A stretch of DNA of 49,206 nt from assembly GCA_037131045.1 (NCBI GenBank), contig JBAXRV010000004.1, positions 1-49,206 of the forward strand, in the 5' to 3' direction. The stretch comes from Actinomycetes bacterium. GTDB taxonomy: Bacteria > Actinomycetota > Actinomycetes > S36-B12 > UBA5976. Positions 16,079 through 21,476 of this stretch are shown piece after piece; the first letter of the stretch is position 1; the number at the start of each line of letters is the position of its first letter. The position numbers and the translations under genes were made by a program. The notes under the pieces are model-generated. The model saw nothing but the letters and a program-made list of their open reading frames with translations. It was not told where the DNA came from and searched no databases.

Positions 16079-16417
16079 TTAGGCAGAACGTGTTGCTGCG
16101 CCTCGTATCAATTCCAAACGTTCACGAAGCAGCGCCTCGAGATCCTTGACAGATCGCCGTTCCCGAAGCATGTCCCAGTGAGTTCTCACGTGCTTTTGGG
16201 GTGTGGCTAACTGCAGTGCAGCACCTACGCGACCGGCCACTTCACCACAGGAGCATTCCCAGGTATCGGGTATCTCATCTGCTTCGAGTGCGAACGGAAG
16301 TGTCGTGTCGTGTCCCTGTGAACACACATACGTCGTGAGAAGTCGAGGTGCCAATTCACCTGAGTCGACCTCGTAGCTGGTTGCGCCCAGCCGGGTTCCA
16401 CGCATTGATTCAGCCAT
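16079..16417 (-). CDS. rbpA: RNA polymerase-binding protein RbpA
   Basis: Motifs MRGTRLGATSYE, C..GH...F...IPDTWEC.CG and RTHWDMLRERRS.DLE.LL.ERL; conserved position next to ppm1. Confidence 0.95.
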   Translation of the reverse strand: MAESMRGTRLGATSYEVDSGELAPRLLTTYVCSQGHDTTLPFALEADEIPDTWECSCGEVAGRVGAALQLATPQKHVRTHWDMLRERRSVKDLEALLRERLELIRGAATRSA

Positions 16418-16555: not shown

Positions 16556-16583
16556 ATCACCGATAAGATACATTATGTCAGGT
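16556..16583. other. Probable chromosomal dif site (XerC/XerD recombination site)
   Basis: ATCACCGATAA-GATACA-TTATGTCAGGT has the 11-6-11 layout and matches the actinobacterial dif pattern as I recall it (..CCGATAA N6 TTATGTCAAGT). It is intergenic and lies where gene orientation switches. Confidence 0.85.
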
Positions 16584-16652: not shown

Positions 16653-17096
16653 CTAGGACAGCTGAAGAGTTCCCGCTTCAGACGTGACAGGTGCATCTAC
16701 GACGGCTTGTTGGCCGTCTTTGATCTGGTCATAGTCGGCCTGCGACACCATAAGTACTGGAACATACTTGGCATACATTTCGCCTGCCACAATGGCGCCT
16801 AGCGCCACAATTGCATCGGGTTCAAGCATCACAATGGCCGCTGGGGCTAAATCCGCCCGGATGAGCTCAGCGAATGAATAGGTGCCAGAACTAGAGCCCC
16901 GACCTGACGTCATCACCAATACCCGCCCCGTGACGCTCTGGGTGTGCTGGGGATGGTGGACGTCAATGATTGCGCCATCTAGCCCCACGCCGCCCCAAAA
17001 GGACACAGGGTCGTCCAATTTGAGAACGCGGCCAGATCCGTGACCTTGTGTGACCCGAAATCCCGAGATGCTGCCAGCAGAACTCGCGCTAGCCAT
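16653..17096 (-). CDS. Aconitase X swivel (small) subunit (DUF126)
   Basis: Motifs PVSFWGGV..G.IID.HHP, GRGSSSG and APAAIV..EPDAI.ALGAIVA. The start at ATG 17096 overlaps the large-subunit stop. Confidence 0.88.
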   Translation of the reverse strand: MASASSAGSISGFRVTQGHGSGRVLKLDDPVSFWGGVGLDGAIIDVHHPQHTQSVTGRVLVMTSGRGSSSGTYSFAELIRADLAPAAIVMLEPDAIVALGAIVAGEMYAKYVPVLMVSQADYDQIKDGQQAVVDAPVTSEAGTLQLS

Positions 17097-18369
17097 GAAA
17101 CAGTCTCCGATCCCAGGTGACCTTGCCACTGCGGGCTGATGCCACGCACTCCCCAACGGTGGCCAACACCACATCAATTCCTAAGTTGCCCGGCGCATAG
17201 TGCGCCCACTTTCCAGAATTAGTCATCACAGTTCTGGTGTTAGGTCGAAGGATTGATGTCACGTACGTACAGGTATCGAGCACAAAAGTGACGCCGAGCG
17301 CCTGAAGTGGTTCAACCAGCCCTTCATCTTGAGCAGCTGCAAATACGGTGCGACCTGTTGAGATATAGAAGTCAACATCTTTATGAATTGGTTCACCACC
17401 TATGAGCGCGTTATAGGCTTCACGAATTTCTGAAACGGACGCATGTGGTGTTCCCAAACTCACCGCATCGAGATTTTCTAATGTTGCAGTTGATAACTCG
17501 GCACGAGCATTTGCTATATCGTCTGACGTGATGAAGTGCACAGGCGCATCAGTGTTTGTTCCAAGAGCCTGTTCGAGTGTGTTGGCTTCTGGAGTACGTC
17601 CCACAACATGAAAGAGTGCTACCCCACCCGAGGATGCCGCCGCAGCACCAAGTGCCTTGAGATTGTCTTCTGACACATCTGATGGAAGTCCAACGTAAAC
17701 CGGATTTTTTGTTCCAGCGATGTGGCCACCGATGTATCCCAAAATCGGATATGTGATGTCCATATCGAGTACTTGCTGACTCAAAGCGGTGCAATCCAAG
17801 ACCACGTGTCCATAACGCAAGTGATCAAGATGCAATCCAGCGTATGGTGCTTTACCTGTTATCGCTGATGCGATGTCAAGAAAATCACCGTAGCGATCGG
17901 TACGCGCTCCAAGGACAGAGTTCGCGAACACGATCGCGTTGGATTCAGCCCATGCAATGTTCTCCCCAAGTGCGGGACGCGAATCCATTTGATAAGGCGC
18001 ACACGTCCATGTTTGACGACAGCCAAGCGTGGCGTACGCCTCCATCAGTTCCCGACCGCCTTTTGCCACAGATTTTTCATGATCTGTGTTTTGCAAAATC
18101 AAATTGGGATGAATCAAATCAATTGATCCAACATTCACTGTTGTTGGAACCGTAACCTTGCCGCCAAGCTCAATAAGTTTGTTAGCAAAATCGAGTCCTG
18201 CTTGCCCATAGAAAATGCAGCCATCGATGTGCACCGAGTTCACATCAACGAGTTGACTTGCTCCCCGAACACGTCCCAACTCAGTGATGATGCGCATTGA
18301 CATAGCTACTGCAGGTCCGTGCTTACCGTCGAGCATGTCCTGCTCTTGCGCTGTCAATGTAATTGTCAT
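17089..18369 (-). CDS. Aconitase X catalytic (large) subunit (DUF521)
   Basis: Motifs [55 protein letters not shown] and [12 protein letters not shown]; the ATG at 18369 is in an ATGA overlap with the gcvP stop. Confidence 0.9.
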
Positions 18370-21257
18370 GCGGTTACAAAATCTTCGATTGGCGGACAAG
18401 CGCAAACAAGGTTGCGGTCACCATATGCACCATCGATGCGACGAACCGGTACCCAGTATTTGCGTTCCCGCAAACTTGCCACTGGATAAGCGCCTTCTTC
18501 GCGAGTGTAAGCGTGATCCCAATCACCCAGCAAAAATTCAGCAGTGTGAGGCGCATGATGCAATGGGTTATCTGCAAGCGGCCACTCGCCTGCTGCAACC
18601 TTATTGATCTCCGCGCGAATTGCCTTCATTGCTGTAATGAAACGATCGAGTTCGAAAAGTGATTCACTTTCTGTCGGTTCAATCATCAACGTTCCTGCAA
18701 CTGGGAACGACATCGTTGGAGCGTGGAATCCAAAATCAACAAGACGCTTTGCAACGTCATCAACAGATACACCTGTGTCTGCTGTGATCTTTCGCAGATC
18801 CAAGATGCATTCGTGAGCTACAAGACCATTGTTACCTTTGTAAAGCACAGGGAAATCAGCATCCAAATGACGAGCGATATAATTAGCGGACGCAACAGCA
18901 ACCTGAGTTGCTTTGGTCAGCCCTTCCCCGCCCATCATGCGGATGTACGCCCAAGGAATCATCAAGATTCCAGCGCTTCCCCAAGGAGCGCCACTGACAG
19001 CCCCTACTCCACCGTCAGCGTGACCACGACCAGTCGGACCTGATTCAGGACGAAGCGGATGTGAGGGAAGGTACGGCGCAAGATGTGAACGCACTGCAAC
19101 TGGACCAACACCTGGTCCCCCACCACCGTGAGGAATTGCAAAAGTTTTGTGCAAGTTCAAGTGCGATACATCTGCACCGAACTTGCCTGGCTTTGCCAGA
19201 CCAACGAGCGCGTTGAGGTTTGCACCATCGACATAGACCTGTCCACCGGCATCATGCACCATTGCGCAGATGTCTTGGATTGTGGCTTCGTATACACCGT
19301 GTGTCGAAGGGTAAGTCACCATCAACGCCGCAATGTTATTTCCGTGAGCCAGAATCTTGTGCTTGAGATCGTCAAGATCTACGTTGCCAAAATCATCACA
19401 TGCAACAACAGCAACCCGCATGCCTGCCATCACGGCTGAAGCAGCGTTAGTACCGTGTGCCGAACTCGGAATCAAACATACGTCGCGATGCTGATCGCCT
19501 CGCGATGTGTGATACGCCCGAATCGCTAGCAAGCCGGCGAATTCCCCTTGTGAGCCAGCGTTGGGTTGCAGTGACACAGCGTCATACCCTGTCACTTCAA
19601 CGAGCCAGGCTTCTAGTTGCTTAATCATCGTCATGTAGCCCTGCACCGAATCAAGCGGAGCAAACGGATGAATCTGAGCAAACTCTGGCCACGTGACGGC
19701 TTCCATTTCACTTGTTGCATTAAGTTTCATCGTGCACGATCCCAATGGAATCATTGAGCGATCAAGTGCAATGTCTTTATCGGACAGTGATCGTAAGTAA
19801 CGCAGCATCGCGGTTTCGCTGTGGTGTGAATTGAATACTGGATTGGTTAAGAACGTTGAAGTGCGGTGCAATGGCGCAGGCAAAACGTTCGACTCATCAA
19901 CGCTGTCGTAGCTTGATGGGTAGTCGCCGGCAATCTGAGATGCAAAACTTTCCCAAACGAGTTCAACGCTTTCTGGGCTGGTCGTCTCATCGACACTGAT
20001 CGCGAGTGTGTCGTTATCAACAAGCCAGAGCAAGATGCCACGTTCCCGCGCAGCATCCAAAATCTGCGCTGCCTTATTTGGAACTGATACCCGAATAGTG
20101 TCAAAGAATGTATCTGAGACGGTTAAGCCAGCGCGAATCAAACCACTGGCTAACGCGGTTGCGCGACCATGTACGTCTTGTGCAATACGAATGAGACCTT
20201 GTGGACCGTGGTACACCGCGTACATGGATGCCATGACGGCCAGAAGAACTTGAGCAGTACAAATGTTGCTCGTTGCTTTGTCACGGCGAATGTGTTGTTC
20301 ACGAGTTTGCAGGGCAAGTCGATATGCCTTCTTGCCATCAACGTCAACGCTGACGCCAACAAGACGTCCTGGCATTGATCGTTCAAGTCCGGTGCGAACT
20401 GCCATAAATCCAGCGTGTGGACCGCCAAACGCCATCGGCACACCGAATCGTTGTGATGAACCCACAGCAATGTCGGCGCCCTGTTCGCCTGGTGAGGTCA
20501 ACACCGTCAAAGCAAGTAGGTCGGTGACAACACCGACAAGAGTGTCGCCACGGTGCGCAGCAGCAATGAGTGGACGAAGGTCACGTACTCGGCCGGAACT
20601 TCCCGGATAACTCAGGAGAAGTCCGAAGCTCTCCCCGATTGTCGTTGTCTGATCAACATCAATGATTTGTATATCAATTCCAAGTGGTTCGGCACGAGTA
20701 GCGAGAACTGACAATGTTTGCGGATGTGTATCGGCATCAACAAAGAAAACATCTGATGATGACTTACTTGATCGTTTCATCAATGTCATTGCTTCGGCGG
20801 CCGCTGTGGACTCGTCCAGAAGCGAAGCACTCGAGATATCAAGACCCGTGAGCTCGATGATCATGGTTTGAAAATTCAATAGGGCTTCAAGACGACCTTG
20901 AGAAATTTCTGGTTGGTAGGGCGTGTAGGCCGTGTACCAGGCGGGGTTCTCGGTGATGTTGCGCAAAATTACGCCGGGCGTATGAGTTCCGTAATACCCA
21001 AGACCAATCATTGGAGTTAGTACTTCATTGGCACTGGCTAACACCCGCAACTCGGCTAATGTCTGTGCCTCTGTTGCGCCTTGTGCAATAGCTAGCGGTG
21101 CGGGATTTTGGATGTTGACTGGAACGGCGTCACGTGACAGTTCATCGAGTGTCGCGTACCCCAGGAAACCAAGGATGTGTTGCATTTCAGATGCATTTGG
21201 CCCAATGTGACGATCAGCAAATTGGGAATAAGAAGCGCTATGAGTGTGAACAGACAT
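18366..21257 (-). CDS. gcvP: Glycine dehydrogenase (decarboxylating), glycine cleavage P protein
   Basis: 963 aa with [47 protein letters not shown]-lysine motif HLNLHKTF and C-terminal [11 protein letters not shown]. Confidence 0.97.
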
Positions 21258-21273
21258 GTAGTACCCCGATATT

Positions 21274-21302
21274 GAAGAGAAAAGACCAATTAAGGTCTCT
21301 CC
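21274..21302 (-). terminator. Candidate terminator forming the riboswitch expression platform
   Basis: - strand hairpin GAGAGACC-TTAATT-GGTCTTTT followed by pyrimidine-rich CTCTTC, located between the riboswitch and the gcvP start. Confidence 0.45.
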
Positions 21303-21420
21303 CCATCTGTCGCGGTCGCTTCAGAGGCGCTGATTCCACATGGTCCTTTGTGCCTGAGAGGTTCTGGGGAGCATTGCCCCTTCGGCGGTGTACTCGAGGC
21401 ACACTCTCTCCCACACGGAA
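21300..21420 (-). ncRNA. Glycine riboswitch (single aptamer plus short 3' 'ghost' aptamer stem)
   Basis: The - strand reads TTCCGTGTG-GGAGAG..CGCCGAAGGGGCAA..AACCTCTCAGGCACAAAGGAC-CATGTGGAA (aptamer 21420-21334), then CTCTGAAG..ACAGA. It lies directly upstream of gcvP, with a TAAAGT -10-like hexamer at 21442-21437. Confidence 0.92.
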
Positions 21421-21476
21421 TCACTAGCTGGGAACTACTTTAGCGGTAGATAAGAAGAAAAATCAGGAGGTAGGGA

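Follow-up and report, generated by a model that had tools for sequence, protein, structure and literature searches.

A two-subunit aconitase X cassette behind a glycine riboswitch and gcvP in one clade of a lake actinobacterial genus: most likely a lineage-specific operon fusion

We analyzed a 49,206-nucleotide stretch of DNA (the window; contig JBAXRV010000004.1 of assembly GCA_037131045.1) from an Actinomycetes bacterium of the lineage S36-B12; UBA5976, in which a glycine riboswitch and gcvP, the gene for the P protein of glycine cleavage, are followed by two genes for the large and small subunits of an aconitase X (AcnX) enzyme. The features of the locus are as follows.

21331-21423, minus strand: single glycine riboswitch aptamer (Rfam RF00504, 66.9 bits against a gathering score of 32)
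21306-21326, minus strand: short conserved helix (CUCUG...CAGA) 3' of the aptamer (RNAalifold, columns 104-128 of alignment A3)
21277-21304, minus strand: expression-platform hairpin with an 11-bp stem, a 6-nt loop and a U-rich 3' strand (single-sequence folds)
18366-21257, minus strand: gcvP, glycine dehydrogenase (P protein), 963 amino acids (Pfam GDC-P, 615 bits, and GcvP2_C, 185 bits)
17089-18369, minus strand: acnX-large, 426 amino acids (Pfam AcnX PF04412, 432 bits)
16653-17096, minus strand: acnX-small (swivel), 147 amino acids (Pfam AcnX_swivel PF01989, 81 bits)
16560-16580, minus strand: 21-nt motif TGACATAATGTATCTTATCGG ahead of rbpA, lying outside the operon and marking where the next, distinct unit begins

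An earlier, sequence-only reading of the window had given the minus-strand order as riboswitch, gcvP, acnX-large and acnX-small with no intergenic space, and Rfam, Pfam and the sequence itself bear this out. GcvP is of the single-chain kind (NCBIfam TIGR00461, 1363 bits, above the cut-off of 859), and the catalytic and swivel domains of AcnX are carried by two separate polypeptides. The gcvP TGA stop and the acnX-large ATG at 18369 share an ATGA (18369-18366), and the acnX-small ATG at 17096 overlaps the acnX-large TAG stop (17091-17089) within ATGGCTAG at 17096-17089, an 8-nt overlap, both as first read; acnX-small ends in a stop at 16655-16653. Upstream TTG starts exist in the open reading frame (ORF) list at 18405 for acnX-large and at 17177 for acnX-small; unlike these, the ATG starts align with the N-termini of congeners. 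No Shine-Dalgarno sequence is recognizable for acnX-large, and acnX-small has a GGAG 9 nt upstream. A scan for the sigma-70-type consensus only found no such site in the last ~900 nt of gcvP, and across the region promoter-like matches were fewer than in shuffled sequence (3 versus 5.4 expected). Consensus scans found no terminator-like site at either gene junction and no convincing candidate 3' of acnX-small. Four-nucleotide ATGA overlaps are a common type of operon junction, and the gene overlaps are thus unremarkable in themselves; a single mRNA for the three genes is nonetheless a reasonable inference from them, and co-transcription with translational coupling is likely in the source genome (G000).

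The aptamer is full length (model positions 1-94 of RF00504), lies 73 nt ahead of the gcvP ATG and is the only one found in the gcvP leader, a singlet. It stands upstream of gcvP in 20/20 congener loci, irrespective of AcnX behind gcvP. Base pairs in the leader covary across 18 congeners: in the short helix four pairs are invariant in 18/18 leaders and two covary (RNAalifold), and a hairpin forms at the platform position in all 18, its stem sequences differing and its outer stem in most leaders using an ACAGAG that could alternatively close the short helix. RNAalifold found the aptamer and the short helix and missed the platform hairpin (a matter of alignment register), which comes from single-sequence folds and in the window ends 9 nt upstream of the gcvP Shine-Dalgarno sequence GGGG (21264-21267). 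The whole-leader minimum free energy is unremarkable (z-score -0.69). The arrangement of aptamer, helix and hairpin is conserved across the genus and has the same layout ahead of a gcv gene as the type-1 singlets carrying a "ghost aptamer," a class of glycine riboswitch that switches glycine-cleavage genes on (PMC5066625 and PMC6944388). The short helix would, by its position, correspond to that ghost aptamer. The leader could act on transcription or on translation, and whichever way it acts, the ATGA overlap would carry the effect to acnX-large. Where the locus departs from type-1 singlet units is in the two genes from outside glycine metabolism that have been added in nine species; the regulated contexts treated in PMC6944388 are glycine cleavage and transporters, and the words "aconitase" and "dehydratase" occur in its text 0 times.

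The best solved relative of acnX-large is the cis-3-hydroxy-L-proline (C3LHyp) dehydratase 7CNP/7CNQ (276.8 bits, E 2.5e-81) and that of acnX-small is 7CNP (77.7 bits, E 9.6e-21), with the archaeal mevalonate-5-phosphate (MVA5P) dehydratase 7CNR scoring lower for both (189 and 54 bits). Following PMC8184944, we mapped residues onto AtAcnX, the fused, Type I enzyme of Agrobacterium tumefaciens (7CNP/7CNQ/7D2R; the PDB index is native numbering + 10), and found the catalytic and substrate residues to be shared except at two positions, both Ser here. The catalytic base Ser70 is kept as S68 of the small subunit, as are the ring-nitrogen binder Asp203, the ring packers Trp35 and Ile206, the supporting contacts Asn233 and Asn294, and the carboxylate/hydroxyl binders Glu292, Ser293, Lys530 and Tyr534 (E142, S143, K387 and Y391 of the large subunit). 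The cluster ligands Cys273 and Cys508 are kept as C123 and C367, the cluster ligand Cys510 is Tyr, and Ser449, the third-Cys position of the Thermococcus kodakarensis enzyme (TkAcnX), is Thr. In the C3LHyp landmark set Trp35/Thr72/Asp203/Ile206, three residues are identical and Thr72, which hydrogen-bonds the ring nitrogen, is Ser with the hydroxyl retained; the neighbouring Cys71, a main-chain carboxylate contact, is also Ser.

In AtAcnX one polypeptide forms the whole enzyme and three cysteines hold its [2Fe-2S] cluster; the enzyme here is split in two and has only two candidate Fe-S cysteines, a pattern reported for bacterial Type IIa AcnX (PMC8184944). The same paper cites Type IIa members from Azospirillum, Intrasporangium and Micromonospora as C3LHyp dehydratases and states that the M. 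viridifaciens and Intrasporangium calvum enzymes are such dehydratases. Separate large and small genes, only two candidate cluster cysteines and, but for the Ser changes just named, the C3LHyp contacts place the pair here with these bacterial enzymes, and the difference lies in the genomic setting: a riboswitch-gcvP unit carries the pair at its 3' end, and no hydroxyproline cluster surrounds it. TkAcnX (Type IIb, 7CNR/7CNS) has the two-subunit build and the carboxylate and C3-hydroxyl binders in common, but where it has the MVA5P-specific Val64(S), Ala47(L), Leu27(S) and Ser50(L), the enzyme of the window has Ser, Asp, Trp and Ile, respectively, and its third cluster cysteine has no counterpart. 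By these residues the enzyme is most likely a two-subunit bacterial Type IIa AcnX acting as a dehydratase of C3LHyp or of a very close 3-hydroxy-imino acid, the product of which would most likely be delta1-pyrroline-2-carboxylate (Pyr2C).

The same residues recur among relatives. Sequences from the genus and from a sample of the phylum show the 12-position large-subunit signature D-[I/L]-N-C-E-S-N-T-C-Y-K-Y in 48/50 cases and the small-subunit signature W-S-S-S in 47/49; three sample loci (L057, L061 and L062) come from unpublished genomes (G184, G238 and G332), and without them the count is 45/47 for both subunits. In the best 80 of at least 594 public relatives, which were the ones inspected, the signature is found in 80/80 large subunits (position 206 being I, L or V) and 77/78 small subunits. 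It is also shared by Micromonospora, Nocardioidaceae and Arthrobacter homologues that sit within canonical hydroxyproline clusters. The Micromonospora locus L089, for instance, runs amino-acid ABC transporter, DHDPS-family gene, proline-racemase-family gene, acnXL, acnXS, OCD-family gene and DAO gene, and congeneric Micromonospora loci with full hydroxyproline clusters have the same signature at 52% identity. An Ornithinimicrobium locus carries two racemase-family genes, a GntR gene and a Na:alanine-family symporter, followed by acnXLS. Among the loci of the best 80 relatives, 25 carry a gene of the proline-racemase family, the OCD family or both within 8 kb; DHDPS-family and DAO genes are also present in 11 of them each. 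At a further locus, L071 (G131:C1, 1447-3228, minus strand), the swivel part precedes the catalytic part in one frame of ~593 amino acids, a fused, Type I-like actinobacterial AcnX with the same residue signature.

The source genome (1.76 Mb in 108 contigs, 90% complete) holds further hydroxyproline genes away from the locus. The sequence-only reading had noted that neither a hydroxyproline nor a mevalonate partner set lies in the window, which is correct, and had allowed that a complete standard pathway elsewhere could explain the enzyme; a standard hydroxyproline pathway appears to be largely there, as a Pyr2C/Pip2C reductase above its cut-off and two proline-racemase-family genes. The reductase is an OCD-family gene (C57:3911-4861; NF004793, 365.7 bits against a cut-off of 322), and one racemase-family gene (C83:1968-3005) matches trans-3-hydroxy-L-proline (T3LHyp) dehydratase best, at 446 bits, below the cut-off of 550. 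The published route from C3LHyp to proline consists of AcnX and then Pyr2C reductase (PMC8184944); with genes for both in G000, both steps would be encoded, scattered over the genome. The search suggested for pathway genes across the genome thus yielded its hydroxyproline part and not its mevalonate part, HMG-CoA reductase and UbiD not being found in this 90% complete assembly; Ldh_2 and SDH_alpha were not found either. All nine genomes of the clade with gcvP-acnX adjacency (clade A, below) have at least one racemase-family and at least one OCD-family match. Five congeners (G018, G035, G008, G013 and G024; 82-97% complete) lack both AcnX and a racemase-family gene, their OCD-family match being absent or not clearly above the cut-off; they are mutually related and do not count as five independent observations.

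Some congeners have a second, higher-scoring OCD-family gene (~360 bits) divergent beside the T3LHyp-dehydratase-like racemase-family gene (e.g., G003:C19:9036-11240 and G063:C24:5425-8243); G000 and its closest relative, G036, show only a 215-bit OCD-family gene, and in G000 the racemase-family gene adjoins a HAD-like gene on a 3.5-kb contig. Besides gcvT (C35, a 396-amino-acid frame), G000 also has four long GCV_T genes (C18:15298-16116, C12:8236-9051, C12:4048-4842 and C50:11826-12638) whose matches sit in open frames of 830-911 amino acids. From their GCV_T domain these look like candidate dimethylglycine/sarcosine dehydrogenase-type (DAO+GCV_T) fusions, which suggests that a large flux may run from methylated amines to glycine in the host.

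Genes for acnX-large are present in 32 of the 41 species genomes of the genus, in two groups. Nine congeners (clade A, 63-100% acnX-large identity to the window) have gcvP immediately upstream of acnX, 9/9, and 23 (clade B, 52-55% identity) have gcvP and acnX on one contig in 0/23 cases. The doubt raised at the outset, that the adjacency might be limited to the source genome, does not hold, since nine species share it; what stands is that all nine fall in one clade and trace to a single insertion. Beyond the genus, AcnX was found in 33/400 other Actinomycetota genomes of the phylum sample and the AcnX protein in 0/24 genomes from other families of the same order; gcvP adjoins acnX in 0/29 sampled Actinomycetota AcnX loci with 1.5-kb flanks (0/26 without the three unpublished ones) and in 3/80 of the best public relatives, all three being clade-A genomes (0/77 others). 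The nearest AcnX sequences outside clade A among these 80, L072 and L073 (75-76% identity) and L075 (63%), have as neighbours an MFS sugar transporter, SSB and GFO/IDH oxidoreductases, and an FMN oxidoreductase, with gcvP not adjoining.

In clade B the acnX pair adjoins a divergent nucleoside hydrolase and an exporter at 4/4 loci examined, and at four further public loci the nucleoside hydrolase lies beside acnX and the exporter is present in three (L096 ends before it). At L022 (G011:C1, 7441-10558), and also at L024, acnX lies between an inosine-uridine nucleoside hydrolase and an 8-oxoguanine-deaminase-like amidohydrolase plus an ArAE-family exporter. Judged by these neighbours, the setting is one of purine salvage, unrelated to hydroxyproline. 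The Amidohydro_1 gene is 8-oxoguanine-deaminase-like (455 bits, below the cut-off of 532) and hence belongs with the neighbouring nucleoside hydrolase; as a possible AcnX partner it was rejected, being found behind acnXS in G011 and G026, not in G028 and G001, and having no homologue in G000. Orthologues of the clade-B nucleoside hydrolase (71-73% identity) occur in G000 (C26:8246-9193) and G036 (C1:55944-56891) with one in-frame TAG each, which could be a shared pseudogene or read-through.

We placed these patterns on trees of gcvP (a quick IQ-TREE run of 28 rows) and of AcnX-large (FastTree, 89 rows), both midpoint-rooted; 13 genomes in which gcvP was unfound or fragmentary (G002, G020, G032, G007, G061, G014, G029, G015, G062, G031, G033, G005 and G063) were omitted from the former. 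Clade A forms one side of a branch in the gcvP tree (SH-aLRT 87), and clade-B genomes group with one AcnX-less genome, G016 (78% complete; SH-aLRT 95). Under the midpoint root the earliest branches are G035, G024 and G008, followed by G018 with G013, all five without AcnX. In the AcnX-large tree clade A is monophyletic (support 0.76) and groups with L072 and L073 (1.0), and clade B (1.0) nests among Micromonospora and Nocardioidaceae sequences from hydroxyproline clusters, with support of 0.78 at the node joining it with Micromonospora; the common ancestor of the two clades is the root of the whole tree. By this tree the genus seems to have acquired the acnX cassette twice. The gcvP-acnX placement is one insertion event, because its nine genomes form one clade.

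The insertion point can be read from the neighbouring genes. The window carries the series pgsA-like gene, two DUF881 genes, gcvH, an FHA protein, MerR, a BFN-domain protein, MerR, riboswitch, gcvP, acnXLS and rbpA; this matches the actinobacterial pgsA2-gcvH-gcvP block that the sequence-only reading had given, for mycobacteria, as lacking AcnX, and the AcnX pair is the extra element. In all the other congeners examined (two of clade B and four without AcnX), riboswitch-gcvP runs straight into rbpA, from which it follows that an older unit received the pair at its 3' end, after the gcvP stop and ahead of the rbpA upstream region. That region has an invariant 21-nt core: the TGACATAATGTATCTTATCGG motif is identical in 7/7 such regions aligned, whether or not the genome has AcnX behind gcvP. 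The motif could serve rbpA as a promoter core or as a site for a regulator; a promoter-like site at 16545-16518 lies just downstream of it and is separate from it. The RbpA proteins (rbpA, 16079-16417) of genomes sharing the invariant motif are only 48-78% identical.

Within clade A the 8-nt overlap of acnX-large and acnX-small is kept in 9/9 genomes, and the gap between the gcvP stop and the acnX-large start varies: -4 nt (the ATGA overlap) in G000, G036 and G003, 5 nt in G017, 11 nt in G010 and G002, ~35-38 nt in G023 and G006, and ~50 nt in G064. No Shine-Dalgarno sequence of acnX-large is visible where the genes overlap, and a GGAG is visible in G023 (35-nt gap).

From this evidence we propose that gcvP-acnX most likely arose by an operon fusion specific to this lineage and does not represent a new glycine pathway. 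In the ancestor of clade A a two-gene acnX cassette would have inserted downstream of the gcvP stop codon and upstream of the rbpA promoter region, so that it now rides on an older singlet-glycine-riboswitch/gcvP unit. Glycine would switch the leader on, ribosomes finishing gcvP would restart at the overlapping acnX-large ATG, and the 8-nt overlap would couple the small subunit to the large; AcnX would then convert C3LHyp to Pyr2C, and the reductase encoded elsewhere in the genome would take this to L-proline. The link to glycine would accordingly amount to regulatory hitch-hiking, or to a loose nutritional tie at the very most. Position is all that appears to speak for a metabolic link, because there is no clade-specific change in the active site, the arrangement has a single origin, the sister genes lie elsewhere and the gcvP-rbpA order is equally conserved. 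Taken whole, a Type IIa C3LHyp-type dehydratase cassette riding on the riboswitch-gcvP unit with no shared pathway is an account that we consider reasonably probable.

Several observations weigh against this account. On the side of the enzyme, the C3LHyp dehydratase equivalog NF051439, which is the sole NCBIfam match of acnX-large, scores 407 bits with the large and 120 bits with the small subunit, below its cut-off of 700 (a 555-position model built on a fused, Pseudomonas-type protein). The C71A variant of AtAcnX is almost inactive (PMC8184944), and Cys71 and Thr72 are both Ser here; that characterized Type IIa enzymes share this Ser-Ser-Ser would follow from the congeneric Micromonospora loci and not from the assayed proteins themselves. 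One fungal AcnX probably has another main substrate (PMC5144071). Among the best 80 relatives, 55 loci show no hydroxyproline gene within 8 kb by our marker panel, and clustering of 891 flanking ORFs at the 46 loci without DHDPS, DAO, racemase-family or OCD-family genes gave no other recurrent AcnX partner; ORF calling was naive and let through spurious frames at high-GC loci, and the clustered neighbours were generic or lineage-bound (ABC ATPase, sulfotransferase, S41 peptidase, MFS, LysM, class IV aminotransferase, branched-chain amino acid permease and PAP2). Genomic context is thereby uninformative for many relatives. On the side of regulation, co-transcription and a glycine response are plausible from the anatomy of the locus, the sequencing runs matched to the stretch comprise 24 DNA runs and no RNA run, and the range of gaps from -4 to ~50 nt means that tight coupling is not universal. 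In G064 (L033, G064:C1), and in no other of the nine clade-A genomes, the gap separating gcvP from acnX-large contains a 12-bp inverted repeat, AAAGCACCUACU...AGUAGGUGCUUU, with CUUU after it and the likely GTG start of acnX-large inside its 3' arm; this repeat may be a terminator or attenuator. Finally, adjacency kept across nine species could reflect selection for co-expression, which accidental insertion does not predict.

Some of these features would fit an adjacency without regulatory meaning, in which expression of acnXLS is separate, driven by a promoter in the 3' end of gcvP or following partial termination, and the overlap is a product of genome compaction. The genomes of the genus are streamlined (1.0-1.8 Mb), the clade-B AcnX is likewise wedged between unrelated purine-salvage genes, and the G064 hairpin, the 35-38-nt gaps in G023 and G006 and the GGAG of G023 itself all point the same way. 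However, in G000, G036 and G003 the start codon lies within the gcvP stop and lacks a Shine-Dalgarno sequence, and the sigma-70-type scan saw no promoter-like consensus in the last ~900 nt of gcvP; we therefore regard this explanation as unlikely.

In this clade the glycine riboswitch could have been co-opted for a hydroxy-imino-acid dehydratase, with glycine a proxy for incoming peptides or algal wall proteins rich in glycine and hydroxyproline, or with an undescribed substrate arriving together with glycine, which we judge to be distinctly unlikely. Another reading, to which we give very little credence, keeps the family and the chemistry and changes the natural substrate in lake plankton to another cis-3-hydroxylated imino acid, such as a dihydroxyproline of algal or diatom cell-wall protein, glycine being the proxy signal for such glycine-rich material. 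It would suit an enzyme found in 32/41 species of an abundant freshwater genus when C3LHyp is said to be rare (PMC8184944, PMC5144071), as it would a stretch whose 24 matched DNA sequencing runs come from lake and freshwater metagenomes, and a host whose four long putative DAO+GCV_T fusion genes besides gcvT suggest heavy flux to glycine. Yet AtAcnX uses 2,3-cis-3,4-cis-dihydroxyproline very poorly, which is put down to Trp35 and Ile206 (PMC8184944), and both residues are kept here; the operon has no transporter or peptidase partner, and the idea is wholly inferential.

The sequence-only reading had favoured an undescribed glycine-linked dehydratase pathway, in which AcnX dehydrates another hydroxy-amino acid or a metabolite of glycine or one-carbon metabolism. 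Its attraction lies in the tight, overlapping placement behind a glycine riboswitch, kept in nine species whose gcvP is only 75-90% identical to that of the window, in the Fe-S L-serine dehydratase family SDH_alpha not being found in G000, and in the poorly known natural source of cis-3-hydroxyproline (PMC8184944). The arrangement would also be new: the literature searched contained no paper linking a glycine riboswitch with DUF521, DUF126 or hydroxyproline, and the AcnX literature found covered only the two known activities. Against it, none of the 16 mapped ligand, catalytic and cluster positions shows a clade-A-specific change, and Asp203, Trp35 and Ile206, which grip the ring nitrogen and the pyrrolidine ring, are kept, a signature that, with the hydroxyproline genes elsewhere in the genome, makes the proposal weak. 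SDH_alpha was found in 0/41 congeners, with or without AcnX, so that its absence is not tied to the presence of AcnX, and replacement of Fe-S L-serine dehydratase by AcnX gained no support. The adjacency is a single evolutionary event, the sisters L072 and L073 (75-76% identity) lie beside a sugar transporter, SSB and GFO/IDH oxidoreductases, and the gcvP-rbpA order, which joins unrelated functions, is just as conserved, so that conservation of order is weak evidence; we consider such a pathway improbable. The mevalonate-5-phosphate dehydratase reading is rejected, since the MVA5P-specific residues are absent, only two cysteines are present and neither HMG-CoA reductase nor UbiD was found in the 90% complete genome.

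Should co-option nevertheless apply, the locus would be the first riboswitch-level link from glycine detoxification to hydroxyproline-type catabolism and would offer a handle on the natural source of cis-3-hydroxylated prolines. A glycine riboswitch would control a non-glycine enzyme in nine species, an arrangement not reported in the literature searched, and AcnX resembling C3LHyp dehydratase occurs in 32/41 species of this common lake genus even though its substrate is said to be rare in nature. If the operon-fusion reading is right, the enzyme itself is ordinary and its genomic place unusual; the case would caution against inferring function from adjacency in streamlined genomes and would show how planktonic genomes of this kind attach acquired two-gene cassettes to regulated units already in place.

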